A stretch of DNA of 64,000 nt from Clostridia bacterium. GTDB lineage: Bacteria; Bacillota; Clostridia; TANB77; CAG-508. The DNA is taken from positions 21,647 to 85,646 of the forward strand of contig JAFWMA010000010.1 in assembly GCA_017510825.1 (NCBI GenBank), written 5' to 3'. Below the pieces are notes generated by a model. That model saw only the letters and a program-made list of their open reading frames with translations. It did not search any database and had not been told where the DNA came from. The translations under genes were made by a program, and so were the position numbers. Of the stretch, positions 712 through 42,162 are shown piece by piece (the first letter of the stretch is position 1; each line of letters starts with the position of its first letter).

Positions 712-2127
712 ATGAGTTATATTGATTGGGATGATTTTGATGATTATGAGATTTCTAAAAACATAGTACATTTAGACCAGTATGATATGTATTATGTTAA
801 TTTTAAGATGAAAGATGGAACATCAAAAACAGTTAGGGTGTTTTGTGATAAAGGCTCAATTCCTGAACCTTATACAAAAAAACACAAAGAGCAAGAGGCA
901 TGGTATGAAGCTTTTGATAGCAATTTAACTGAAGTTATTGGCATGCAATTAGTGGGCAGGGATGGTCTAATGAATCAACAGGGGAGAGATGATTATATAT
1001 ATAGAGGAAACTTTTCTTGCGGATGGAACGATATTTATTATCCTATTTATGATGGCAAAACAAGAACAAAACTGGATTTATTTGAAGACAATTTATTTAG
1101 AACACAATTACAAGTTCAAGCAATAGAATGCCAGCAAGCTAGTAGAAGGAGTAATGGAGTTGAAACACGAGAATATACAAGGTATAGTTCAACGACACCA
1201 GCTCAAAAATTAAATGGAAAAGGTAAACACTATGCAATATCAGACGTTCACGGAATGTATGGTTCATATGACGAAGCAATTAAAAGAATGTCACCAAATG
1301 ACCATTTATATATAATTGGAGATGCTATAGACAGAGGAAGTGAAGGAATAAAAATTCTTCAAGACATAATCAGAAGAAAAAATGATACACGTAATAATCC
1401 AGAAATAACTTTCTTATTAGGAAATCATGAATGGCAATTTTTACATTGTTTAGCTTTAATGCAACATTTTGACTTAACAGAACAAGAAGTTGAAGCATTA
1501 GCAATGTGGAGACACTTTGAAAACGGTGGAGTTGATAAACAAACTTTTAGAGATTGTTATTTTTCTAGTTCTATTAGTGCAGCAAAAAAAGGTGTTGATA
1601 AAAATGATATATCTTGGTTTTATGCTTGGTATTTATATAATGGAGGCAGAAAAACTTTGCCAGATTTTCTAGAACTAGATAAAAAACAGCAAGATAATAT
1701 AGTATACTTTTTATCTAATTCGCCACTTGCACTATCACAGGAAATAGAAGGAAAAAAATATTTATTTGTTCATGCAATGCCTCCAGAAAGAGAAGAGCTT
1801 CTTCAATGTTTAATGAATGGAAACGAAGTTAATCTAGATAATATTGATCAAAGAACACTAAATGATGATGCTCATACAATGTTGGAGGGAAGAGAAAAGA
1901 AAATAGGTACTTATACTTATGGGCTTGCTAAAAGACATGGATTTACAACAATTTGTGGACATGAACCAACAATAGGAAAGATTGTAAAAAATCCTGATAA
2001 AGGTTTTGTGAGAATTGATGCAGCATGTCCAAGTGGTTGGTATGGTGGAAAACTAGCATTATACTGCATTGAAGATGGAAAAACGCAATACATTGATTCA
2101 CAAGAAAGAGAAGGAACTGATAGATAA
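712..2127 (+). CDS. PPP-family metallophosphoesterase (lambda-phosphatase/PrpE-like) with unknown ~170-aa N-terminal domain
   Basis: Motifs ISDVHG, IGDAIDRG, LGNHE in canonical order; RBS AAGGAG upstream. Confidence 0.8.
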   Translation: MSYIDWDDFDDYEISKNIVHLDQYDMYYVNFKMKDGTSKTVRVFCDKGSIPEPYTKKHKEQEAWYEAFDSNLTEVIGMQLVGRDGLMNQQGRDDYIYRGNFSCGWNDIYYPIYDGKTRTKLDLFEDNLFRTQLQVQAIECQQASRRSNGVETREYTRYSSTTPAQKLNGKGKHYAISDVHGMYGSYDEAIKRMSPNDHLYIIGDAIDRGSEGIKILQDIIRRKNDTRNNPEITFLLGNHEWQFLHCLALMQHFDLTEQEVEALAMWRHFENGGVDKQTFRDCYFSSSISAAKKGVDKNDISWFYAWYLYNGGRKTLPDFLELDKKQQDNIVYFLSNSPLALSQEIEGKKYLFVHAMPPEREELLQCLMNGNEVNLDNIDQRTLNDDAHTMLEGREKKIGTYTYGLAKRHGFTTICGHEPTIGKIVKNPDKGFVRIDAACPSGWYGGKLALYCIEDGKTQYIDSQEREGTDR

Positions 2128-2167
2128 GGAATATTAGACTTAGAGCTCCATATTAATTAAGAAGAAT

Positions 2168-2220
2168 AAAGAGAGGTAATTATTAATCTATGGATTGTAA
2201 ATACCTCTCTTTTAGATTTT
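2168..2220 (+). terminator. Rho-independent terminator
   Basis: AAAGAGAGGTA...TACCTCTCTTT stem then T-rich tail. Confidence 0.65.
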
Positions 2221-2229
2221 TAAACATAT

Positions 2230-2286
2230 AAAAAACGTGAAAAAATCACGAAAACAGCAATAAAAAACGTGAAAAAATCACGAAAA
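2230..2286. promoter_or_regulatory. Two identical 25-bp boxes, each containing the palindrome CGTGA-N5-TCACG (candidate operators)
   Basis: AAAAAACGTGAAAAAATCACGAAAA at 2230-2254 and 2262-2286 (32-bp spacing), ending 3 bp before the -35 of the next promoter. Confidence 0.5.
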
Positions 2287-2288
2287 GC

Positions 2289-2317
2289 TTGACTGAATAT
2301 ATAATTTAAGGTATAAT
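2289..2317 (+). promoter_or_regulatory. Sigma-A type promoter of the AAA ATPase gene
   Basis: TTGACT-17 bp-TATAAT. Confidence 0.6.
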
Positions 2318-2340
2318 GTTTATAAGGAGTGTAATGATTA

Positions 2341-3633
2341 ATGAAAAGAGAGATATATAATAAGTTAATAGAATGGAAAAATAATAATATAAATATGCCA
2401 TTTATGCTTGTAGGTGCTAGACAAACAGGGAAAACCTATATTTTAAATGAATTTTGCAATAATGAATTTGAAAAAAATCTGTATATTAATCTTGACAAAT
2501 CAGAAGATATTAGAGAAATATTTGAGGAAACACTTGAGCCAGATACAATAATACAAAATATTGAAGCTTTAAAAAACATATCAATAGATATAAACAACAC
2601 TATAGTCTTTTTAGATGAAATTCAAGTAAGTGAAAGAGCAATTAGTTCATTAAAGTATTTTTGTGAGAGTGAAAAACCATACAAAATAGTTTGTGCTGGA
2701 AGCTTATTAGGTGTTAAAATAAATAGATTTAAAAGTTCATTTCCAGTTGGAAAGGTTTGGATAGACTACTTATATCCTATGAAATTTAATGAATTTTTGC
2801 TGGCTATAGGAGAAGAAAAATTACTTGATTTGATAGAAAATGGATATAAAGATATGGAACCTATAATAGAGGTCAATCATAAAAAAGCTTTAAAATTATA
2901 CTATGATTATATCTGCATAGGAGGAATGCCTGCATCTATTTTACAGTATATTGAGAATGGTAAAAGCATTGCCAATATAGATGATGACTTGCTTAGAATA
3001 ATAATAACTTCATATTTAGCAGATATGGCAAAATACACAGAAAATACAGAGAGCATAAAAAACACAAAAATTTACAATTCCATTCCATCGCAGCTAGGCA
3101 AAGAAAATAAAAAATTCAAGTATTCATTAGTAGAAAAATCGGCAAGAAGTAGAGAATATGATTCATCTTTAAATTGGTTGCTCTCAAGCAATATGATATT
3201 AAAATGCGATGGGGTTGAAAATCCTAAATCACCATTAAAAGCAAACAAAGTGGATAATTTTAAGATATACTTAAGTGACATGGGGCTTTTAAGAGTTCTA
3301 GCTAATATAGACAAAACTGAAATCTTATTAAATAAAAATATGATTTATAAAGGTGCAATTACAGAAAATTATGTAGCACAAGTATTATATGCAAAACATC
3401 ATGAATTGTTTTATTGGCAACAAGGAAATCAGTATGAAGTTGATTTTCTAATCAATATGGAAGGAGACATAATTCCAATTGAAGTTAAAGCAGGAGACAA
3501 TACTACTTCAAGAAGCTTAAATCACTATATAAGTAAATATAAGCCTAAGTATAGTATTAGAGTATCAACGAAAAACTTTGGGTTTAGCAATAATATAAAA
3601 TCTGTGCCTTTATATGCGGTACATTTAATATAA
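2341..3633 (+). CDS. AAA-family ATPase (AAA_14/DUF4143-type architecture)
   Basis: Walker A GARQTGKT, Walker B IVFLDEIQ, 430 aa, typical length and layout of this family. Confidence 0.8.
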   Translation: MKREIYNKLIEWKNNNINMPFMLVGARQTGKTYILNEFCNNEFEKNLYINLDKSEDIREIFEETLEPDTIIQNIEALKNISIDINNTIVFLDEIQVSERAISSLKYFCESEKPYKIVCAGSLLGVKINRFKSSFPVGKVWIDYLYPMKFNEFLLAIGEEKLLDLIENGYKDMEPIIEVNHKKALKLYYDYICIGGMPASILQYIENGKSIANIDDDLLRIIITSYLADMAKYTENTESIKNTKIYNSIPSQLGKENKKFKYSLVEKSARSREYDSSLNWLLSSNMILKCDGVENPKSPLKANKVDNFKIYLSDMGLLRVLANIDKTEILLNKNMIYKGAITENYVAQVLYAKHHELFYWQQGNQYEVDFLINMEGDIIPIEVKAGDNTTSRSLNHYISKYKPKYSIRVSTKNFGFSNNIKSVPLYAVHLI

Positions 3634-3645
3634 GAGGAGATTTAA

Positions 3646-5193
3646 ATGGTAGATTATATAACGATAATAGGTGGAGGTTTAGCTGGGTGTGAAGCGGCTT
3701 ATCAAATTGCAAAAAGAGGAATAAAGGTGAAATTGTATGAGATGAAACCAGCTAAGTTTTCACCAGCTCATAGTAATGAAAATTTAGCTGAAATTGTGTG
3801 TAGCAATTCATTTAAGTCAGACTTGCTAACAAATGCATGTGGACTATTAAAAGAAGAACTACGAATGATGGATTCACTCCTAATAAAAATAGCAGATCAA
3901 ACAAAAGTCCCTGCAGGACAAGCACTAGCAGTAGATAGAGAGGAATTTGCTAAAAAAGTTACAGAAGAGATAAAAAACAATCCATTAATTGAAGTGATAA
4001 ATCAAGAGATTACATCAAAAGAAAGATTTGGAGACGCTTCTCAAATCTTACAAAACGAATCTCTAAGATTTGGAGATACTTCCCCAATTTTACAAAATAA
4101 AACTGCAGACTTGCCAAAAACCCCCGTCCCTAATGGCACTAATGGCAGGAATCTGCCAAAAACCTCCGTCCCTAATGGCAGATGCTTGGAAGAATTAATA
4201 GGAGAAGGAATCGTAATAATTGCAACAGGTCCATTAACATCAGATGCCTTATCAGAAGGAATTAGGAATCTAACAGGAGAGGAAGATTTACACTTCTACG
4301 ATGCTCAAGCTCCAATAGTTGAAAAAGATTCAATTGACTTTAATATAGCTTTTTATGGAAACAGATATGAACAAGAAAAGAAAAAAGATGAAACTATTGA
4401 ACAATGGAAAGAGAGATTAACTAATCAATCAGAAGAAACACAAAGTTATATAAACCTACTTATGAATGAAGAAGAATATAATAAATTTTATAATGAATTA
4501 ATTAATGCAGAAGTTGTAACACTAAGAGATTTTGAAAAACGAGAAATCTTTGAGGGATGTATGCCAGTTGAAATAATGGCTAAGAGAGGGATAGATACTT
4601 TAAGATTTGGGCCACTTAAGCCAGTTGGTTTTGATGATCCACGAACAGGAAGAAGGCCTTATGCAGTGGTTCAATTAAGACAAGACAATTCTCAAGGTTC
4701 ACTATATAATATTGTAGGATTCCAAACAAATTTGAAATTTGGAGAACAAAAGAGGGTATTTAGTATGATACCAGGATTAGAGAGTGCTAATTTTGTGAAA
4801 TATGGTGTGATGCACAGAAATACATTTATTAATTCAACTAGATTATTAGATAATACATATAATTTTAAGGAAAATAAAAACATTTACTTTGCTGGACAAA
4901 TTACAGGAGTAGAAGGGTATGTAGAATCAATTGCATCAGGATTAGTATCTGGTATAAATGCTGTAAGAAGCTATAAAGAAGAAGAAAAAATAATATTTGA
5001 TGAACAAACTATGTTAGGAGCATTAGCAAAATATATATCAACACCTAACGACAAGTTCCAACCAATGAATGCAAACTATGGAATTTTACCACCTTTGAAA
5101 GAAAAAATAAGAGATAAAAAGTTAAGGTACAAAACATTAAGCGAAAGAAGTTTAAAAATAATTCACGGTATGCTTTATGTAGTAGATAAGTGA
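3646..5193 (+). CDS. trmFO: Methylenetetrahydrofolate--tRNA-(uracil54-C5)-methyltransferase TrmFO, with in-frame insertions
   Basis: FAD fold IIGGGLAGCEAAYQ, VCSNS, FEGCMPVE, VGFQTNLKFGEQKRVF, GQITGVEGYVES; 515 aa versus ~435 aa for typical TrmFO. Confidence 0.93.
   Translation: MVDYITIIGGGLAGCEAAYQIAKRGIKVKLYEMKPAKFSPAHSNENLAEIVCSNSFKSDLLTNACGLLKEELRMMDSLLIKIADQTKVPAGQALAVDREEFAKKVTEEIKNNPLIEVINQEITSKERFGDASQILQNESLRFGDTSPILQNKTADLPKTPVPNGTNGRNLPKTSVPNGRCLEELIGEGIVIIATGPLTSDALSEGIRNLTGEEDLHFYDAQAPIVEKDSIDFNIAFYGNRYEQEKKKDETIEQWKERLTNQSEETQSYINLLMNEEEYNKFYNELINAEVVTLRDFEKREIFEGCMPVEIMAKRGIDTLRFGPLKPVGFDDPRTGRRPYAVVQLRQDNSQGSLYNIVGFQTNLKFGEQKRVFSMIPGLESANFVKYGVMHRNTFINSTRLLDNTYNFKENKNIYFAGQITGVEGYVESIASGLVSGINAVRSYKEEEKIIFDEQTMLGALAKYISTPNDKFQPMNANYGILPPLKEKIRDKKLRYKTLSERSLKIIHGMLYVVDK
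4024..4190. repeat. Repeat-derived in-frame block inside trmFO (2 x 42 nt + 2 x 42 nt)
   Basis: AGATTTGGAGACGCTTCTCAAATCTTACAAAA.../AGATTTGGAGATACTTCCCCAATTTTACAAAA... then two GCCAAAAACCYCCGTCCCTAATGGCA units; CCGTCCCTAATG is the reverse complement of CATTAGGGACGG in the glmS leader repeat. Confidence 0.75.
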
Positions 5194-7774: not shown

Positions 7775-8188
7775 GTGCCAACAATTAATCAATTAGTTAG
7801 AAAAGGAAGAAAAACTTCAAAAGCTAAGTCAAAATCACCAGCTTTGCAACATGGCTTCAACTCTATGAAAAACAGACAAACTAATGCTAAGTCACCACAA
7901 AAAAGAGGTGTTTGTACTGTAGTAAAGACTGTAACACCTAAGAAACCAAACTCAGCTTTAAGAAAAGTTGCGAGAGTTAGACTTTCAAATGGATATGAAG
8001 TTACTTCTTATATTCCAGGTATTGGTCATAACTTACAAGAGCATAGTGTTGTTCTTATAAGAGGTGGAAGGGTTAAAGATCTTCCTGGTGTGAGATACCA
8101 TATTATAAGGGGAACTCTTGATACAGCTGGTGTTAAGGATAGGATGCAAGCTCGCTCGAAGTATGGAGCTAAGAAACCTAAAAAATAG
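7775..8188 (+). CDS. rpsL: 30S ribosomal protein S12
   Basis: GTG start after GGAGGTG; [12 protein letters not shown]...[16 protein letters not shown]...VRYHIIRG. Confidence 0.98.
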
Positions 8189-8311
8189 TTTTTGTTGTGA
8201 AAAGTGTCATTCTACTGCGTTAAAATAATTTTCTAAGACCTCGACATACAGATGTATAGTCTCGTCCTTTTAAAATTATTTTGCCTTGTATAACTTGCTT
8301 TTGACAACAAA
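8189..8311. repeat. ~123-bp palindromic MITE-like element, copy 1 (rpsL-rpsG spacer)
   Basis: Termini TTTGTTGTGAAAAG / CTTTTGACAACAAA, inner arms AAAATAATTTT / AAAATTATTTT, centre ATACAGATGTAT. Confidence 0.75.
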
Positions 8312-8312
8312 C

Positions 8313-8440
8313 TGTTTGTTGTGAAAAACTGCATCTTATGTTGTCAAAATAAAATAAAAAAAAACTTCGACGTACACCACGTACAGTCTCATCTTTTTTA
8401 TTTTATTTTTCTTAGTAATATTTGTTTTTGACAACAAAAA
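8313..8440. repeat. ~128-bp palindromic MITE-like element, copy 2 (diverged core, same termini)
   Basis: Termini TTTGTTGTGAAAAAC / GTTTTTGACAACAAA; inner A-run/T-run arms; centre GTACACCACGTAC. Confidence 0.7.
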
Positions 8441-8754: not shown

Positions 8755-9225
8755 GTGCCAAGAAAAGGATATGTAGCAAAAAGAGAAATTTTACCAGATC
8801 CTATATATAACAGTGTTAAAGTTACAAAGCTTATTAACAATGTTATGTTAGATGGTAAAAAGACTGTTGCACAAAAAATAGTTTATGATGCATTTGAAAT
8901 TATCAAAGAAAAAACTGGAAAAGATCCACTTGAAGTATTTGAAGAATCATTAAATCAAATTATGCCAGTTCTTGAAGTTAAAGCTAGAAGAATTGGTGGT
9001 GCAACATATCAAGTTCCACTTGAAATAAGACCTGAAAGAAGACAAACATTAGGTTTAAGATGGTTAGTTTTATTTGCTAGAAAAAGAAATGAAAAAACTA
9101 TGGCAGAGAGATTAGCAGCTGAAATAATGGATTCACTTGAAGGTAATGGTGGAGCTTTCAAGAAGAAAGAAGATATGCATAAGATGGCTGAGGCTAACAA
9201 AGCTTTTGCACACTACAAATTTTAA
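8755..9225 (+). CDS. rpsG: 30S ribosomal protein S7
   Basis: GTG start after AAGGAGGG; [20 protein letters not shown]... Confidence 0.98.
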
Positions 9226-9229
9226 AATT

Positions 9230-9397
9230 GCGGTGAAAAGTGTCGTTCTTTTGTATAACTTGCTTTTGACTCTAATTTTATAAAAAAATAAGAAGTAAAA
9301 AGCTATGTTCTACTGCGTTAAAATAATTTTCTAAGATCTCGACATACAGATGTATAGTTTTGTCCTTAAAAATTATTTTGCCTTGTATAACTTGCTT
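9230..9397. repeat. Composite of the same element family (core-deleted copy plus a ~90-nt copy)
   Basis: 9308-9397 matches 8210-8300 with only about 6-7 differences by eye; 9230-9270 joins the left end GTGAAAAGTGTC to the right end TGTATAACTTGCTTTTGAC. Confidence 0.75.
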
Positions 9398-9417
9398 CTA
9401 GCTTCCAAAAATATCAT

Positions 9418-9571: not shown

Positions 9572-11665
9572 ATGGCTAACAGTGGAAGAGAGTTTCCTTT
9601 AGAGAAAACAAGAAATATAGGAATAATGGCTCACATTGATGCTGGAAAGACCACTACAACAGAAAGAATTTTATTTTATACTGGTAGAACTCACAAAATT
9701 GGTGAAGTTCATGATGGTCAGGCAACAATGGACTGGATGGCTCAAGAGCAAGAAAGAGGTATTACAATTACTTCTGCTGCAACAACTTGCCATTGGAGAG
9801 AACATAGAATTAATATAATTGATACTCCAGGTCATGTTGATTTTACAGTTGAAGTTGAAAGATCTCTTAGAGTTCTTGATGGTTCAGTGCTAGTATTAGC
9901 AGCTAAAGGTGGTGTGCAACCACAATCAGAAACAGTTTGGAGACAAGCTGATAAATATAAGGTTCCAAGAATCGTATATGTTAATAAAATGGATATTACA
10001 GGAGCAGATTTCTATCTTTGTATTGATCAAATGAGAGATAGATTAGGATGTCATCCTGTTCCAATACAATTACCAGTAGGTAAAGAGGATTATTTCCAAG
10101 GGATCGTTGATTTAATTAAGATGAAAGCTTATATTCAATCTGACGAAGACCAAGGAAAAGAAATCAAAGAGCAAGACATTCCAGCTGATATGCTTGAAGA
10201 AGCTCAAAAATATAGAGATGAGATGATCGAAGTTGTATCAGAACAAGATGATGAGTTAATGATGAAGTATTTGGAAGGTGAAGAACTAACTGAAGAGGAA
10301 ATCAGATTGGGTCTTAGAAAAGGAACAATTGCAAATAAAATAGTTCCAATGACTTGTGGTTCATCATATAAAAATAAAGGTGTTCAAGAATTGCTTGATG
10401 CTATTATTGACTACTTACCAGCACCAACAGATATTGAAGACGTTAAGGGTGTTGATGAAGATGGAAATGAAGTTACAAGAGCAACTGATGATAATGCACC
10501 ATTCTCAGCTTTAGCATTCAAGATTATGACTGACCCATTTGTAGGAAAATTATGTTTCTTCAGAGTTTATTCTGGAACATGTGATTCTGGTTCAACAATT
10601 TATAATGCTACAAAGCAAAAGAAAGATAGAATTGGAAGAATTCTATTAATGCATGCTAATAACAGGCAAGATATTGATAAAGTTTATGCTGGAGATATTG
10701 CTGCTGCAGTTGGACTTAAAGAAGTTGGAACTGGAGATACTTTATGTGATGCTGAAAACCCAGTTATACTTGAATCAATGGAATTTCCAGAACCTGTTAT
10801 AGATATTGCTATTGAGCCTAAAGATAAGGCAAATAGTGAAAAACTTGGTATTGCATTAGCAAAACTTGCAGAGGAGGATCCAACATTCAAAACGTGGACT
10901 GATAAAGAATCAGGTCAAACAATTATAGCTGGTATGGGTGAGCTTCATCTAGACATTATAGTTGATAGACTTAAAAGAGAGTTTAAAGTTGAATGTACAG
11001 AAGGAAAGCCTCAAGTTTCGTATAAAGAAACAATTAGAAATAAAGCTAGAGTACAAGGTAAGTTTGTACGTCAATCTGGTGGACATGGACAATATGGTGA
11101 TGTTTGGTTTGAAATGGAACCATTAGAGCCAGGTTCAGGAATTGTATTTGAGAACAAAATCGTTGGTGGTGCTGTTCCTAAAGAATACATTAAACCAGTT
11201 GAGGAAGGAATGAGAGAAGCTGCTTTAACAGGTATTCTTGCTGGATATCCTGTTATTGATTTCAAGGTTACATTAGTTGATGGATCATACCATGAAGTTG
11301 ACTCATCAGAAATGGCCTTCAAAGTTGCAGCATCTATTGCTTTTAAAGAAGGTTGTAAGCAAGCTAAATCAGCTCTATTAGAACCTATTATGAAAATTGA
11401 AGTAACTGTTCCTGAAGAATATATGGGAGATGTTATAGGAGATATTAATGCTAGACGTGGTAGAATGGAAGGTATGGAAGCACAATCTGGAAATCAAGTA
11501 ATTAGAGGATTTATTCCTTTATCAGAGATGTTTGGATATGCAACAGATCTACGTTCGAAAACACAAGGTAGAGGAACATATTCTATGGAACCATCTCATT
11601 ATGAAGAAGTTCCAAAATCTGTTCTTGATCAAATTGTTTCTGCTAGAAGCAAGAAAGAAGATTAA
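9572..11665 (+). CDS. fusA: Elongation factor G
   Basis: [17 protein letters not shown], 697 aa. Confidence 0.98.
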
Positions 11666-18571: not shown

Positions 18572-20011
18572 ATGTCAAGAGAAGATTATGAAGTTGTTAT
18601 TGGATTGGAAGTACACGCGGAGCTTTCAACAAGAACAAAAATATTTTGCTCATGTTCAACAGAATTTGGAGCAAATGAAAATACACACGTGTGCCCAATT
18701 TGTACAGCAATGCCTGGAGCTTTACCAAAGTTAAATGAAAAAGTGGTTGAGTATGCAGTTAAGGCTGGATTAGCTACAAATTGTAGTATATCACAAGATA
18801 GTAAAAATGATAGAAAGAATTACTTTTATCCGGATTTACCAAAATCATATCAGATTTCTCAATTTGACAAACCACTTTGTAATCATGGATATGTTGAGAT
18901 TGAAGATGATGATGGAAATAAGAAAAAAGTTAGAATTTTGAGAATTCATATTGAAGAAGATGCTGGAAAATTAAATCATGATGAATATTCAAGTGGAAGT
19001 TTAGTTGATTTAAACAGAGCTGGAGTACCTTTGATTGAAATTGTTTCAGAGCCAGATTTGCGTTCATCAGGAGAAGCAGATAGATATTTAAAAAAATTGA
19101 AATCTATTCTTCAATACATAAATGTATCTGATTGTAAAATGGAAGAAGGTTCTTTGAGAGCTGATGTTAATGTTTCTATTCATAAACCAGGAACAGAATT
19201 AGGAACTAGACATGAGATGAAAAATATTAATTCTTTTAAAGCAATTCAAAGAGCAATTGAATATGAGATAGATAGTCAAATAGATGATGCAGAAAATGGT
19301 AAAGTTATTCAACAGGAAACTATGAGGTGGGATGACTTAGAGGGAAGAACTTTTCCTATGAGAAGTAAGGAAGATGCTCAAGATTATAGATATTTTCCTG
19401 ATCCTGATTTAGTTGCTATTAAATTGTCAGATGAATATATTAATAATATAAAGGAAAACTTACCAGAACTTCCAGAATCAAGAAAAGTTAGGTATATGGA
19501 AGAGATTGGTCTATCAGAAAAAGATGCTGATGCTTTAGTTAGCTCAAGAAGGTTTTCTGATATTTTTGAAGAAGCGGGAAAAATATGTAATGATTATAAA
19601 TCTGTTTGTAATTGGCTAACTTCGGATATATCAAGAATACTAAATGAAGGAGAAATGGATCCAGAGGAAATTCCTTTTAAGGCAAAAGAATTAGCAGAAT
19701 TAGTAAGTTTGATTAATGATGGAACGATTAGTTCTAAAATTGGGAAGAAGGTTTTAGAAGAATTATTTAAAGAACCACGTTCTCCTAAAAAAATAATAGA
19801 AGAGAAAGGTTGGGTTCAGATTTCGGATGAATCTGAAATTAAAGAAGTAGTAATGACAGTGCTAGAGGCAAATCCTCAGTCAATTGTTGATTTCAAAGCG
19901 GGAAAAGATAGAGCCTTAGGATTTTTAGTTGGCCAAGCAATGAAAGCAACTAAAGGAAAAGCAAATCCTCAAATGCTTAATAAGATGTTTTTAGAAGAAT
20001 TAAAAAAATAA
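18572..20011 (+). CDS. gatB: Asp/Glu-tRNA amidotransferase subunit B
   Basis: YEVVIGLEVHAEL, C-terminal GatB/YqeY tail; ATG 18572 preferred over 18560 on RBS spacing. Confidence 0.95.
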   Translation: MSREDYEVVIGLEVHAELSTRTKIFCSCSTEFGANENTHVCPICTAMPGALPKLNEKVVEYAVKAGLATNCSISQDSKNDRKNYFYPDLPKSYQISQFDKPLCNHGYVEIEDDDGNKKKVRILRIHIEEDAGKLNHDEYSSGSLVDLNRAGVPLIEIVSEPDLRSSGEADRYLKKLKSILQYINVSDCKMEEGSLRADVNVSIHKPGTELGTRHEMKNINSFKAIQRAIEYEIDSQIDDAENGKVIQQETMRWDDLEGRTFPMRSKEDAQDYRYFPDPDLVAIKLSDEYINNIKENLPELPESRKVRYMEEIGLSEKDADALVSSRRFSDIFEEAGKICNDYKSVCNWLTSDISRILNEGEMDPEEIPFKAKELAELVSLINDGTISSKIGKKVLEELFKEPRSPKKIIEEKGWVQISDESEIKEVVMTVLEANPQSIVDFKAGKDRALGFLVGQAMKATKGKANPQMLNKMFLEELKK

Positions 20012-20029: not shown

Positions 20030-20220
20030 GGACTGTCCAAAATTGCAAAGGTTTTGGAGAAAGATTGTCCAAAGTTGCAAATATTTTGCAAAAAAGGTTG
20101 TTCCAAGTTGCAAACGTTTTGCGAAAAAGGGTCATCCCAAACTGCAAACGTTTTGCGAAAAAGGGTCGTCCCAAACTGCAAATGTTTTGCAAAAAAGGGT
20201 CGTCCCAAATTGCAAAAAAA
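20030..20220 (+). repeat. Head-to-tail array of 5.7 units of the 33/34-nt REP-like repeat
   Basis: Units start at 20030, 20063, 20096, 20129, 20163, 20197; consensus GGGTCGTCCCAAACTGCAAACGTTTTGCGAAAAA; units become closer to consensus 5' to 3'. Confidence 0.9.
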
Positions 20221-20397
20221 TTCAATAAATTTCCAGTGTAAAAAATTAAAAAATGAACATCCTAAATATTGAAAAAGAATTAATTCATAATAATGAATTA
20301 CATTAGGTAAAAATTCTTATAGAGTAATTTGTTAATTAAATTGTTTTATTAGAATAATGCTTAAGCTTTTTCAAAAATATTTTAGGAGGTGTATATC

Positions 20398-26389: not shown

Positions 26390-26739
26390 GTTACAAACTA
26401 TTTTCAATTTGAGAAATAATTTTTTTATTGTAGTTTGCTTTTTGCCAACATCTCTTGACAGTAGCATGCCATAGAATCATCCGCCGAATATTTCGATAAA
26501 TTCTATCCTCGTCAGCTGAGAAAATTAGGTCACTGGGGACGGAGCACTTGGCCCACTTTTGGGTCATTAGGGACGGAGCATTTTAGTTAAAATTAGAACA
26601 ATAAAGCAATAAGTAGATTTGTTTTATTATATTTATTGACTTGTTGGGACAGATTTAATTAAAAAGCTCTGTCCCTAATGACCCAAAAGTGGGCCAAATG
26701 CTCCGTCCCCAGTGACCTAATTTTCTCAGCTCTGGCGCT
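26390..26739 (-). ncRNA. glmS ribozyme (cis-regulatory) with greatly enlarged P1
   Basis: Minus strand A|GCGCCAGAGCU...AGCUGACGAGGAUAGAAUUUAUCGAAAUAUUCGGCGGAUGAUUC plus a downstream P4-like hairpin GCAAACUAC...AUAGUUUGU; located in the glmS 5' UTR. Confidence 0.85.
26514..26731. repeat. Inverted doublet of GGGACGGAGC-type repeat units (66-bp arms, 86-nt loop)
   Basis: 26514-26579 vs reverse complement of 26666-26731 differ at 2 of 66 positions. Confidence 0.92.
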
Positions 26740-26765
26740 TGATATTATTTTGTGACCTAACATAT

Positions 26766-29121: not shown

Positions 29122-29856
29122 ATGACATTAGCTTTTGCGACCTCAGATGTGGGAAAAGCCCGAGAAATAAATGAAGATTACTTTTTTATTAGCTTTCCAG
29201 ATGATCCAGTTCAAATATATATAGTAGCAGATGGAATGGGTGGATATAATGGTGGAGAAGTTGCTAGCAGACTAGCTGTTGATACTGCCAAAAAATATAT
29301 TTTAAGTAATTATGAAAAGGTTAATAAAAATAGAGAATCTTTAATTGAATTAGTTAAGAATAGTACTCAATATGCTAATATGGTTGTGTATGAAAAGGCT
29401 CAATCTAGAAAAGAGCTAAATAAAATGGGAACAACTTTGGATGTTTGCTTGATTCATCAAAATAGAGCTTTTATTTCACATATTGGGGATAGTAGAATTT
29501 ATAGATTAAGAAAAGAGTTTTTTAGAAGATTAACTAAAGATCATTCTTATGTACAACAGTTAGTTGATGAAGGAAAAATTTCTAAACAAGAAAGCTTAAA
29601 TCATCCAGATAAAAATATGTTGATGAAAGCATTAGGGGTATCATCTTTTATTGAACCAGATGCAATGGTAAAAGGATTTCTAAAAGGTGATGTAATATTA
29701 ATGTGTTCAGATGGATTATCAAATATGGTATCTGAAAAAGATATTGTGAGAATTATTAAAGAAAATCCAACAGATGCTACAAAAATGCTTGTTCAAACAG
29801 CAAATGATAATGGAGGAAGAGACAATATAACTGCAGTGTTGCTAAGAAGTCAGTAA
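29122..29856 (+). CDS. stp: PP2C-family Ser/Thr phosphatase
   Basis: ADGMGG, DSRIY, SDGL, DNITAV motifs; precedes prkC. Confidence 0.92.
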   Translation: MTLAFATSDVGKAREINEDYFFISFPDDPVQIYIVADGMGGYNGGEVASRLAVDTAKKYILSNYEKVNKNRESLIELVKNSTQYANMVVYEKAQSRKELNKMGTTLDVCLIHQNRAFISHIGDSRIYRLRKEFFRRLTKDHSYVQQLVDEGKISKQESLNHPDKNMLMKALGVSSFIEPDAMVKGFLKGDVILMCSDGLSNMVSEKDIVRIIKENPTDATKMLVQTANDNGGRDNITAVLLRSQ

Positions 29857-29912
29857 TTTTGCAATTTGGGACGACCTTTTTCAGCAAAAAAATTGCAATT
29901 TAGGACACTCCT
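29857..29912 (-). repeat. Two REP-like units (reverse orientation) immediately after the stp stop
   Basis: TTTTGCAATTTGGGACGACCTTTTT and TTGCAATTTAGGACACTCC; a further palindrome TGCAAAAAAACTGCATTTTTTTGCA lies at ~29955-29985. Confidence 0.85.
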
Positions 29913-30032
29913 TATTGTGTAAAATTGAAAAAATAATTGAGTAATTAAAAAGGTCTGCAAAAAAACTGCATTTTTTTGCATAAAGCCTGTATTTAATTGC
30001 ATGTTTAACCTTAATGAAAGGAAATAAAAAAA

Positions 30033-37107: not shown

Positions 37108-37151
37108 AGGGAGCGCAATTTTTGCAATTTGGGACGACCATTTTTTGCAAG
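37088..37151 (-). repeat. REP-like units overlapping the ileS 3' end and flanking the RAYT gene (left flank)
   Basis: GCAAAAGTTTGCAGTTAGAGGGAGCGC then CAATTTTTGCAATTTGGGACGACCATTTTTTGCAAG. Confidence 0.85.
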
Positions 37152-37262
37152 AATTTTGAAAAAACTTAAAATATGATTATGATATATGTTTATAAATAAT
37201 ATTAATTAATGATTAGTAAATAAGTGGGGGTATTATTCTAATCAAAGATTGGAGGTAATAGT

Positions 37263-38007: not shown

Positions 38008-38128
38008 GGGGGACCTTTTAGAAAAAGTTTGATAAAAAAGATGGGCTATTTTAACGAAAGTTTGCTAAAATAGGTCGTCCCAAATTGCAATTTTTTGCTA
38101 AAAAGGGCTGTTCTAAATGACAAAGAGG
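38008..38128 (+). repeat. Array of four ~32-33-nt REP-like units (right flank of RAYT)
   Basis: Units at 38008, 38040, 38073, 38105; the third is near-consensus, the others degenerate. Confidence 0.8.
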
Positions 38129-38136
38129 ACGTGGAA

Positions 38137-39243
38137 ATGAAACTTAGTGAATTTAATTATGATTTGCCTGAAGAACTGATTGCTCAAGTTCCAATTCAGA
38201 ATAGAGACCAGTCAAGATTGATGGTATTAGATAGAAAGAGTAAAAAAATTGAAGATAGAATTTTTAAAGAGATAATTGAATATTTAGAGCCAGGAGACTG
38301 TTTGGTAAGAAATAATACTAAAGTTATTCCTGCAAGATTATATGGAAAAAAAGAAACTGGTGCAAATGTTGAGTTTGTCCTTTTAAAAAATATAGAAGGT
38401 GATATTTGGGAAGCGATGGTAAGACCGGGAAATAAACTTCATTCTGGTGCTAAGGTGTTCTTCGAAATAGAAAACAAACAGAAAGTGGAGCTTAGAGAGT
38501 CTGAAAACAAAATATCTAATAAGAATATAGATAATGTAGAGAAAAGTTCTAAAACATTGTTAGTTGCAAAAATTCTTAGTTCCACTGATGATGGAACAAG
38601 AATTGTAAAGTTTTCTTATAATGGAATTTTTAATGAAATTCTTGATCAAATTGGGTTAATGCCATTACCACCATATATTCACGAATCTTTAAAGGAAAAA
38701 GATAGATATCAGACAGTTTATGCTAAATATAATGGATCTGCAGCGGCTCCAACAGCAGGACTTCATTTTACTCCAGAGCTTATTGATAAAATTAAAAAAA
38801 AGGGAGTTGAAATTGCAAATGTAACTTTGCATGTTGGGATTGGGACTTTTAGACCTGTTAAAGAAGAGAATATTGAAGATCATAAAATGCATACTGAGCA
38901 TTATCAAATAAAAAAGGAAGATGCTGATAAAATTAATAAAGCAAAAAGAGATGGAAAAAAAGTAATTGCAGTTGGAACAACATCTTGTAGAACTTTGGAA
39001 TCTGTTGCAGATGTAAATGGAATTGTAAAAGAATGTGAGGGAGATACCGGTATTTATATATATCCTGGATATAAATTTAAATGTGTTGATTCTTTAATAA
39101 CTAATTTTCATTTACCAGAATCAACATTGATAATGTTAGTTTCTGCATTTGCGGGAAGAGAGTATGTAATGGAAGCATATAGGTATGCTGTGAATGAAAA
39201 GTATAGATTTTTTAGTTTCGGTGATGCAATGCTTATTAAATAA
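38137..39243 (+). CDS. queA: S-adenosylmethionine:tRNA ribosyltransferase-isomerase
   Basis: Start ATG 38137 ([17 protein letters not shown]); the track start at 38095 lies inside the REP array; C-terminal [11 protein letters not shown]. Confidence 0.95.
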
Positions 39244-39255
39244 TAAAACAAATGA

Positions 39256-40464
<1,209 letters not shown>

Positions 40465-40467
40465 AAT

Positions 40468-42162
40468 ATGGCTTTAATCCAAGAAGAATCAAATAATAAC
40501 GAAAATAAAGTCAAGAGTTTAAAACATAGTTTAATTGTTATTATTATTTTTGCTTTTTTACTAATTATCGTAGCAATTGTAATTTATGTTTATTCTATTA
40601 ATGTAGCTACTGTACAACGTAAGGTATTAATTGATGGGACAAGTAATACAAAACTTGCAAATGATGAGGATGTTTTTATTGTTGAAAATGATAAAGTATA
40701 TACTTCTATAAAACTGATAGCAGATGCTATAGGTTATAAGTTTTATCCAGGTGAATATCAACAATATACAGAGGATGAATCAAGTTGCTATGTTACTAAT
40801 CAAAAAGAATTAGTAACTTTTACTGCAGGGTCAAAAGAAATAAGAAAATATCCTCAGCTTTCTAAGTCTGAGTCACAATTATTTGATTTAGATGAAGAAG
40901 TTCAGGATAGAAAGAATAGCCTTTACTTAAGTGAAAAAGGAATGGAAAGAGCATTTAATACAATAGTTAAGTATACAAAGGATAATAATACAATTTCATT
41001 AACTACCTTAGGATATTTAACAACTAATGTTACTACTCAAGTTAAAAATGCGTATTTAATAAAAAAAGAAGGTGAAACTGAAAATAATGAAATGACAGAA
41101 TCTATTTTGTTTAATAATCAAAAAGCATTATTAGCTAATTTAGTTGTTACACAAAATGATAGTACAAAGTTGTTTGGAGTTACAAAAACAACAAATGGTG
41201 AAATGAATAGTATTATTTCAGAAAGATATAAGGTGATTGAATTTATTGAGGGAGCGAATGATTTTATTGTAAAGACTGAAGATAATAAATATGGAATTAT
41301 TGGAAATGAGGGATTTCCAAAAATAAAACCTGCTTATGACGAAATACAAGAACTTGATAAGGATTTGGGATTGTATTTAGTAACAAGTAATGGAAAACAA
41401 GGTGTTGTAAATCAAAATGGAAATGATATTGTATATCAAGAATATGATCAAATTGGTTTAGATGCTGATAATGGAGACAAAAATGTTAAAAATAGATATT
41501 TATTGTATGGCAATTGTATTCCTGTTAAATTAGATAAAAAATGGGGGTTGATTGATAAAAATGGAAATAAGATATTAAATATAGAATATGATGGTATAGG
41601 ATGTAAACTTTCTTCAACTCAAGCAAATACTACTGGAATTGTTTTAATACCAGATATGGAAGCTATTGTTGTTGAACAGGATATGAAAAAGGCAGATGGC
41701 AATTCGGTAGTGAAAAAATATGGAATTGTAAATTCTAAAGGAGAAAAGATTACTGATATTGCTGCAGATTCAGCATATGCAATTACTATAGATAATAAGG
41801 TTACATATTATTTATCTGTGGATAATCAGATGATTGATATTGTTGAGTTTTGGAATAAGTATAAATATGGTAATAATAATCAAACAGAAAATCCACAACA
41901 GCAATCTCAGGAACAGCAACAATTAGAACAGCAACAATTGCAACAGCAACAATTAGAACAGCAACAATTGCAACAGCAACAATTAGAACAACAACAATTG
42001 CAACAGCAACAATTAGAACAACAACAATTGCAACAGCAACAATTGCAACAACAACAATTGCAACAACAACAATTGGAACAGCAACAATTGGAACAGCAAC
42101 AACAACAGCAACAGCAACAAACAGAACAACAGTTTTTACAGTATTCTCAATTTGTTAATTAG
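40468..42162 (+). CDS. Membrane-anchored WG-repeat protein with C-terminal poly(QQQLE/Q) tail
   Basis: N-terminal TM; KYGIIGNEG, KQGVVNQNGNDI, KWGLIDKNGNKI, KYGIVNSKGEKI repeats. Confidence 0.85.
   Translation: MALIQEESNNNENKVKSLKHSLIVIIIFAFLLIIVAIVIYVYSINVATVQRKVLIDGTSNTKLANDEDVFIVENDKVYTSIKLIADAIGYKFYPGEYQQYTEDESSCYVTNQKELVTFTAGSKEIRKYPQLSKSESQLFDLDEEVQDRKNSLYLSEKGMERAFNTIVKYTKDNNTISLTTLGYLTTNVTTQVKNAYLIKKEGETENNEMTESILFNNQKALLANLVVTQNDSTKLFGVTKTTNGEMNSIISERYKVIEFIEGANDFIVKTEDNKYGIIGNEGFPKIKPAYDEIQELDKDLGLYLVTSNGKQGVVNQNGNDIVYQEYDQIGLDADNGDKNVKNRYLLYGNCIPVKLDKKWGLIDKNGNKILNIEYDGIGCKLSSTQANTTGIVLIPDMEAIVVEQDMKKADGNSVVKKYGIVNSKGEKITDIAADSAYAITIDNKVTYYLSVDNQMIDIVEFWNKYKYGNNNQTENPQQQSQEQQQLEQQQLQQQQLEQQQLQQQQLEQQQLQQQQLEQQQLQQQQLQQQQLQQQQLEQQQLEQQQQQQQQQTEQQFLQYSQFVN
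41911..42120 (+). repeat. Coding tandem repeat, 15-nt period (30-nt super-period)
   Basis: (GAACAGCAACAATTA/CAACAGCAACAATTG)n, ~14 units, encoding QQQLE/QQQLQ. Confidence 0.9.

Follow-up and report, generated by a model that had tools for sequence, protein, structure and literature searches.

How has the trmFO gene of a clostridial bacterium come to carry, in frame, a tandemly repeated block of about 60 codons? The gene lies in a 64,000-nucleotide stretch of contig JAFWMA010000010.1 (assembly GCA_017510825.1), hereafter called the window, and an earlier sequence-only reading had proposed that the entire block is a decayed inverted doublet of a short repeat found elsewhere in the same DNA. Comparison with related alleles and with the repeats of the window indicates instead that the insert is probably composite: its 3′ half (units B1 and B2) would come from an interspersed repeat family with the core GGGTCGTCCC, its 5′ half (units A1 and A2) would be a duplicated segment of the loop in which it lies, and the whole would be a near-neutral, disordered passenger in a permissive loop of the enzyme.

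The trmFO coding sequence (3646-5193, +) is intact and encodes 515 residues, with a GGGLAG motif for binding flavin adenine dinucleotide (FAD) and both catalytic-type cysteines conserved (C52 in VCSNS and C305 in EGCMP), which we take to be the counterparts of Cys53 and Cys226 of Bacillus subtilis TrmFO. Residues G9, G11, G14, C52 and C305 are invariant across 75 relatives, the window protein included. A phmmer comparison with the Thermus thermophilus TrmFO 3g5q gives an E-value of 1.9e-120 over three collinear blocks (query residues 4-123, 186-244 and 265-504 aligned with chain residues 3-122, 125-183 and 183-422), the best structural match of the predicted model is TrmFO 3g5s (E 3.1e-42), and PF01134 is on record for a protein identical to the one in the window. 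Judged by these matches, the protein is TrmFO, the folate/FAD-dependent tRNA m5U54 methyltransferase. Outside the insert the ratio of non-synonymous to synonymous differences (pN/pS) is 0.14-0.18. To call the gene essential, as the sequence-only reading did, is an overstatement, TrmFO being dispensable in T. thermophilus according to a review (PMC6418473). Two further observations concern the protein itself. A second extra segment of 20 residues relative to the T. thermophilus enzyme (residues 245-264, positions 4378-4437, KKKDETIEQWKERLTNQSEE) is conserved in all 75 relatives and is a feature of the clade, not a recent insertion. A public gene call for the locus (P0121, corresponding to window 3970-5193) starts at an internal methionine and is 407 residues long, having lost the FAD-binding N-terminus; this truncation looks like an annotation error.

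The first two blocks of the HMMER alignment leave query residues 124-185 between chain residues 122 and 125, so that about 60 residues are extra relative to the T. thermophilus enzyme, at the place and with the peptide that the sequence-only reading had reported. The motif N-[DG]-[KR]-[YC]-L-E-[ED]-L that follows the last unit aligns with the conserved G-D-K-I-x-L-K-E-L motif of the 14-residue loop found in 24 of the 75 relatives, which sets the net insertion at 54 codons. The inserted peptide reads RFGDASQILQNESL / RFGDTSPILQNKTA / DLPKTPVPNGTNGRN / LPKTSVPNGRCLEE, and FGDASQILQNESLR is an example of a peptide that spans a junction. In the DNA there are, as had been described, two 42-nt direct repeats followed by two more: the A repeats at 4023-4062 and 4065-4104 are 80% identical, the 27-nt B cores at 4112-4138 and 4154-4180 are 96% identical, and both pairs have a spacing of 42 nt. 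The A and B patterns occur at no other place in the window, with 0.00 matches expected by chance. The parts of the insert are as follows, with z scores for hairpins given relative to shuffled sequences.

4012-4173 (+), net insertion as measured against loops of 14 residues, T123 to P176.
4024-4065 (+), unit A1, peptide RFGDASQILQNESL, with its own hairpin AAGATTTGGAGA/TCTC-AAATCTT (z -2.7).
4066-4107 (+), unit A2, peptide RFGDTSPILQNKTA, 80% identical to A1.
4108-4149 (+), unit B1, peptide DLPKTPVPNGTNGR, judged repeat-derived, with its 27-nt core at 4112-4138.
4130-4147 (+), perfect 9-nt tandem duplication, CTAATGGCA twice, inside B1.
4150-4191 (+), unit B2, peptide NLPKTSVPNGRCLE in the trmFO frame, judged repeat-derived, with its core at 4154-4180 and the stem ATCTGCCA/TGGCAGAT (z -3.1).

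The codon for N169 (4150-4152), just past B1, is the last of the 15-residue third segment as originally divided, and the LPKTSVPNGRCLEE segment corresponds to 4153-4194. From NGRC onward B2 probably overlaps the ancestral loop. The two halves differ in composition: G+C content is 51% in B and 33% in A, against 31% in the remainder of trmFO and 29% in the window. Of the reading frames of the insert, that of trmFO is the only open one, and no target-site duplication is evident at the junctions in an alignment of trmFO alleles.

The repeat family to which B was compared is interspersed, has a period of 33-34 nt and the core GGGTCGTCCC / CCGTCCC, and is built of the unit TGCAAAAAAGGGTCGTCCCAAAYTGCA plus a short spacer. 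Five loci of the family lie within the 64 kb, all of them between open reading frames (ORFs) and mostly just past a stop codon.

20035-20234 (+), array with a 34-nt period, about 5.4 units of TGCAAAAAAGGGTCGTCCCAAAYTGCA plus a 7-nt spacer, just downstream of an ORF ending at 20011.
29857-29916 (-), dimer directly after the stop codon of ORF 29122-29856.
37119-37161 (-), intergenic copy.
38045-38123 (+), intergenic copy, the nearest match to the insert of the trmFO allele P0003 (see below).
39237-39335 (+), intergenic dimer.

The GC-rich hexamer CGTCCC of the core is found elsewhere in the window only at the repeat loci. No stop codon interrupts five of the six frames in the 182 nt of the array at 20035-20216, in a window of 29% GC in which random 167-nt segments have a mean of 0.93 open frames and reach five or more with a probability of 0.001. 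Each unit has a weak TGCAAA/TTTGCA stem of 5-7 bp with a 3-nt loop and a quasi-palindromic core, and the arrays run head to tail. A scan of the GTDB representative genomes with AAAAAGGGTCGTCCCWAA returned just 20 single, scattered matches in unrelated taxa, which is chance level, so neither the genome of the window nor its repeat family is among those representatives; a search of the searchable literature for the repeat cores found only unrelated primers.

A profile was built with nhmmer solely from the intergenic copies and searched against the window and four related loci, approximately 270 kb over both strands. Outside the intergenic loci it matches in two places, namely the insert of P0003 – a trmFO allele closely related to that of the window – and the trmFO gene of the window itself. 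The P0003 insert (10361-10427 of locus L002) is matched with E 7.3e-8 and 29.6 bits, and window positions 4099-4180 (+) with E 0.03 and 11.5 bits, B1 and B2 being aligned as a dimer with eight extra bases. In a targeted test the B pair scores 9.4 bits, against a maximum of 4.2 bits among 2000 random 96-nt segments of the window, and dinucleotide shuffles of the individual units give p ≤0.004 for B1, B2 and the B unit of allele P0002 in the + orientation and p >0.7 in the - orientation. The P0003 insert aligns locally with the copy at 38045 with a score of 59 (null 21 ± 2.7) and is about 78% identical to window 38045-38110 over 63 nt; in a three-allele DNA alignment B2 pairs with the TGCTAAAAAGGGTCGTCCCTAATGACA of P0003 in the frame of trmFO. 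On these nucleotide comparisons, the B half derives from the GGGTCGTCCC family, and it does so in direct, not inverse, orientation relative to the intergenic arrays. The 9-nt duplication of CTAATGGCA inside B1 converts the 33-nt period of the repeat to 42 nt, both being multiples of three.

The same comparisons give a different result for the A half. The repeat profile matches neither strand of the A-A segment, of the A-like unit of allele P0004 or of the inserts of alleles P0005, P0019 and P0029; for five A-like units, compared with the repeat in either orientation, dinucleotide shuffles yield p 0.06-0.8; and the proposed resemblance of the A pair to a reverse-oriented intergenic repeat is at chance level by pairwise local alignment (p ~0.25). 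A profile of the A units matches in trmFO only, and the A pattern AGATTTGGAGAYRCTTC gives 120 single matches in a metagenome scan, all at chance level and none of them reaching past the 17-mer; one longer match to the A pattern (L114) sits in an unrelated, cysteine-rich ORF. As far as these alignments can tell, A has no detectable derivation from the GGGTCGTCCC family in either orientation, and the proposal of a repeat-derived block thus holds for B and fails for A. Instead, A looks like a lineage-specific loop segment that has been tandemly duplicated. That it is native loop material is suggested by its GC content of 33% and by the more distant allele P0004, which has one A-like unit at the matching codon position and no B. 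An origin of A from the conserved TLRFGPLKP segment of trmFO was also considered and rejected, its sole support, the 10-nt exact match TAAGATTTGG, being at chance level.

The block is not an ancestral feature of TrmFO. An alignment of orthologues shows that it is restricted to a lineage: 59 of the 75 relatives have 11-14 residues between the positions of E121 and I189 (11 residues in 35 of them), compared with 67 in the window, and others have unrelated inserts of 21-49 residues at the same site. Alleles that lack the insert, which the sequence-only reading had suggested looking for, or that carry another one are numerous, and the site takes several forms apart from the 11-14-residue loops.

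Window and P0122-P0124: A A B B.
P0002 and P0125: A A B, shorter than the window allele by one 42-nt unit.
P0003: a near-consensus repeat dimer only, sharing both the site and the reading frame.
P0004: one A-like unit (TTGGGGACACCTTCCAAA, peptide DIGDTFQ), without B.
P0019 and P0029 (full length), P0127 and P0199 (fragmentary gene calls): unrelated N/K/Q-rich inserts, that of the P0199 fragment being long and K/N/D-rich.

The lengths by which these alleles differ, 42 nt for AABB against AAB and 9 nt for the duplication, are divisible by three. In the 5′ two-thirds of trmFO, three close alleles show 90-100% identity, and the insert is the fastest-changing stretch of that part; between the inserts of the window and P0003 identity is only 52-72%, so that this region turns over faster than point mutation allows. 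An apparent conservation of B2 between the window and P0002 was discarded as a finding, the whole 5′ two-thirds of the two genes being 90-97% identical in a sliding window. The window allele itself is seen in five members of its 90% cluster, spread over 13 contigs (P0001 and P0122 together on 10), and at locus L024, from another sample, trmFO differs from it by 1 nt.

The peptide encoded by the insert appears to be confined to TrmFO. An exhaustive HMMER search of 1.84 billion cluster representatives found no homologous peptide in other proteins, the single match being an unrelated 621-residue protein with a Pro-rich tandem repeat. A word-indexed protein search with the 67-residue insert returned nothing and missed even the self match, the method having poor sensitivity for so short a query. 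A 140-residue segment spanning the insert recovered only fragmentary TrmFO matches without A or B units, several of them with further unrelated inserts at the same site.

These observations are best explained, we think, by the capture of a repeat in a loop that tolerates it. In this clade, the TrmFO loop that lies between the strand ending in ...EVINQEI and LEELIGEGIVIIATGPLTS, a short helix and strand, would accept nearly any peptide. The 5′ half of the insert would be a lineage-specific segment of that loop, lengthened by a tandem duplication of 42 nt, or 14 codons; the 3′ half would be an in-frame dimer of the 33-34-nt repeat, oriented as in the intergenic arrays, with its period extended to 42 nt by the internal 9-nt duplication and its frame kept. 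Survival of the repeat inside a gene would be favored both by a consensus without stop codons in five of the six frames and by its landing in a permissive, probably surface-exposed loop. The insert would then be translated as a disordered loop and persist as a neutral or nearly neutral passenger, and later rapid change would have come about through gain and loss of units, small duplications, and replacement or recombination. Translation of the insert within a working enzyme would fit the single open frame of the insert, pN/pS values of 0.28 inside it and 0.18 outside, and the invariant cysteines and FAD motif. In the predicted structure, residues 128-177 have a predicted local distance difference test score (pLDDT) of 27-34, compared with averages of 94-95 in several flanking 10-residue blocks, and the insert is accordingly predicted to be disordered; the loop is presumably exposed to solvent at the surface of the protein.

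Several points weigh against this account or limit it. Taken alone, the B pair of the window is borderline in the window-wide search (E 0.03), and the case rests on the P0003 allele together with the targeted controls. The term palindromic fits the GGGTCGTCCC family only loosely, since single units fold weakly, no better than their shuffles (z -0.2 to -0.4). The inserts of the window and of P0003 may not share one insertion event; the difference between them could come from independent insertion, from conversion by a further copy of the repeat or from a tract imported by recombination. Finally, a second palindromic repeat family, outside the sequence sampled, could conceivably be the source of A, given that the A1 hairpin is significant and that the window covers only 64 kb of the genome.

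The view of the sequence-only reading that A and B together make up a decayed 2+2 inverted doublet of the intergenic repeat, with A reversed, B forward and the architecture of the insertion in the glmS ribozyme, is unlikely to be right. The ribozyme in the window (26415-26750, -; RF00234, 60.3 bits) has a P1 loop of 197 nt, compared with 8 nt in the model, and contains the following element.

26514-26731 (-), related but distinct repeat subfamily with the core GGGACGGAGCA, 34-nt units, 2+2 inverted, inserted in the ribozyme's P1 loop.

The connection between B and this element, which had been noticed from the sequence, is real: CCGTCCCTAATGG is present in two copies in the trmFO insert and, with one mismatch, in a single minus-strand copy in the glmS insertion (26564-26576; 0.00 expected), and B2 and the glmS insertion have the 14-nt sequence CTCCGTCCCTAATG exactly in common. 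There are also hints of an inverted component, in that reversed A1 contains CGTC-T-CCAAAT where the repeat has CGTCCCAAAT, the A-like unit of P0004 reads TTGGGGACACC beside the TTTGGGACGACC of the reversed repeat, and the P0003 insert folds into one hairpin (z -2.9) and contains GGGACGG...TCGTCCC as an inverted pair. However, the A-like units do not rise above their shuffles, match the profile on neither strand and align with the repeat at chance level, as described above, and the GC content of A is that of normal coding sequence. Moreover, the architectures differ. The glmS insertion forms one near-perfect long hairpin with 102-nt arms that are 86% complementary (-142.9 kcal/mol, z -20), whereas the trmFO insert folds into local hairpins only (-40.9 kcal/mol, z -2.9), and no long inverted repeat joining A to B, or lying anywhere within or around 3900-4300, was found. 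In a relative that carries the trmFO allele P0006, the P1 loop of glmS holds a single canonical unit, TGTGCAGAAAAGGGACGTCCCAAATTGCACA (L025 6192-6227, -; also L027), so that occupancy of the ribozyme loop by repeats is clade-wide and its contents differ.

That the insert has been co-opted – either as a flexible arm rich in Lys, Pro and Asn with an effect on tRNA binding or partner interaction, or through A1 and B2 hairpins in the mRNA that modulate translation or decay – we regard as improbable. The A1 and B2 hairpins do exceed their shuffles, the identical allele is seen again in many samples, and a comparison of the window with P0002 gives the insert a pN/pS of 0.28, a value that comes from just 12 substitutions, against 0.18 in the remaining gene. 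Set against this, nothing else in the 5′ two-thirds of trmFO changes as fast as the insert, its copy number is not constant among close relatives, many relatives lack it or have an insert of an unrelated kind, the segment is predicted to be disordered, and no related peptide was found elsewhere among the 1.84 billion cluster representatives.

A broader proposal, which we think quite improbable, makes the TrmFO loop a recurrent landing site for a gene-tolerated repeat family that lacks stop codons in five of six frames, also occupies the glmS P1 loop, and routinely seeds disordered arms and RNA extensions in molecules of essential pathways in this uncultured lineage of Firmicutes. In that case the window and P0003 inserts would be independent insertions and not the product of a single old event, which would account for how very different they are.

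Pure slippage or tandem duplication within an unconstrained loop, with the likeness to the repeat a matter of coincidence or convergence, describes A exactly, and it is consistent with the variability of the site, with the low-complexity N/K/Q-rich inserts of other relatives that are unlike the repeat, and with the single 42-nt unit by which AABB and AAB differ. For the insert as a whole it is very unlikely: the P0003 insert matches the intergenic copies too closely (E 7.3e-8, ~78% identity over 63 nt), the B units score better than composition-matched shuffles, and CGTCCC is otherwise confined to the repeat loci of an AT-rich window. An artefact of assembly that placed repeats in trmFO, or a pseudogene with an accidentally open frame, is extremely unlikely in spite of the truncated NCBI-derived call P0121, because the allele recurs in independent assemblies (including the L024 copy) and because the full ORF is undisturbed, every catalytic and cofactor motif is present, and pN/pS outside the insert is low.

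The capture of an interspersed repeat, in frame, in a permissive loop is not without parallel. The sequence-only reading knew only the Rickettsia palindromic elements (RPE) as a precedent, but in-frame repetitive extragenic palindromes (REPs) are found within genes in several phyla, dimers or groups (more than half of the cases) encoding 20-30 residues and clusters 43-82 residues (PMC3733652; Di Nocera, De Gregorio and Rocco 2013), and in-frame fusions of small repeats such as MITEs (miniature transposable elements with inverted repeats) and BOX elements with chromosomal ORFs have been reviewed with citations of Ogata, Delihas, Croucher, Hot and Fewer (PMC3184786; Delihas 2011). GTAG- and CGTC-tagged REPs are mostly intergenic and lie just downstream of ORFs, and the hosts of intragenic copies include RNA-related enzymes (PMC3733652). 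The window family is similar in being short, interspersed and mostly intergenic past ORFs, in being in frame in one gene, and in having CGTC in its core; most window copies have a terminal CGTC tag, as GGGT-CGTC-CC. CGTC REPs, however, have a stem of 8-9 bp starting with A/T pairs, a loop of 4-5 nt and a CCA tail, and mostly form head-to-head dimers (PMC3733652), whereas the window family forms head-to-tail arrays of 33-34 nt with a 5-7 bp stem, a 3-nt loop and single units that fold weakly. The family shares the tetranucleotide but not these rules of stem, loop, tail and dimer, and we keep it outside that class. The survey of intragenic REPs (PMC3733652) names no Firmicutes; the host in the window is a Firmicute.

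RPE-4 and RPE-6 of Rickettsia have themselves been classed as CGTC-tagged REPs (PMC3733652). In the accounts of RPE given in PMC3184786 and PMC3733652 (after Ogata et al. 2000), these are single palindromic units of 105-146 bp in many genes of one genome. Going by those accounts, the trmFO insert resembles RPE in that a repeat stands in frame in a conserved gene and would be translated as an additional peptide that leaves the protein intact, and it differs in having units of about 33 nt, in affecting one gene in 64 kb, in being repeat-derived over half of its length, and in that no other protein carries the peptide. Like the MITE and BOX fusions (PMC3184786), it involves a small interspersed element with open frames that is fused internally to a coding sequence; unlike MITEs, it lacks terminal inverted repeats and a target-site duplication, and the element in the glmS leader is the more MITE-like of the two. 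The 42-nt period, the variable number of units (AABB or AAB) and the predicted disorder of the loop recall coding tandem repeats of the variable-number (VNTR) type, although B was seeded by an interspersed repeat and not by purely local sequence. The type of event is therefore already known, and the host and the gene are new: in-frame insertion of repeats is extended to an uncultured, AT-rich Firmicute, presumably of the ruminant gut, and to a tRNA-modifying flavoenzyme, in a genome where the repeat super-family also occupies a tolerant ribozyme loop. No new mechanism and no function of the insert are indicated. What the intermediate alleles add is a readable history, documenting how protein sequence can arise from a short interspersed repeat, with a stop-free repeat in a permissive loop, small duplications that restore the frame, and the subsequent gain and loss of units.

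Several features surround trmFO in the relatives. On the contig with the AAB allele P0002, an IS3-type transposase pair (HTH_Tnp_1 and rve; L001 4568-5805) lies about 2.8 kb downstream of the gene, and the 3′ end of P0002 trmFO is strongly divergent (58-85% identity), which suggests that it is a recombinant gene. At L024, which carries the trmFO allele of the window, a metallophosphoesterase gene and one for an AAA_14/DUF4143 ATPase stand between a conserved 316-residue gene and trmFO, and window 712-3633 contains ORFs that match the lengths of the L024 genes (471 and 430 residues). The two genes are missing from the P0003 locus (L002 8979-9929), which points to a local insertion of genes upstream of trmFO. 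The insert-free allele P0006 belongs to the metagenome-assembled genome GCA_017510245.1; a BofA gene near trmFO at its locus, which we take to be a marker of sporulation, suggests a spore-forming Firmicute. The metagenome assemblies of the relatives bear the record prefix XIEF21-1 and presumably come from a study of the ruminant gut.

Two other sets of repeats are present in the window. A coding tandem repeat of 15/30 nt at 41852-42149, with the unit AACAGCAACAATTAGAACAGCAACAATTGC in about 13 copies, lies in ORF 40468-42162 and encodes a Gln-rich repeat. Another family of direct repeats, 58-85 nt long and 66-84% identical, is found at 8197-8438 and 9295-9408; these flank ORFs 7775-8188 and 8755-9225, probably rpsL and rpsG, and may be shared leader or regulatory sequence.

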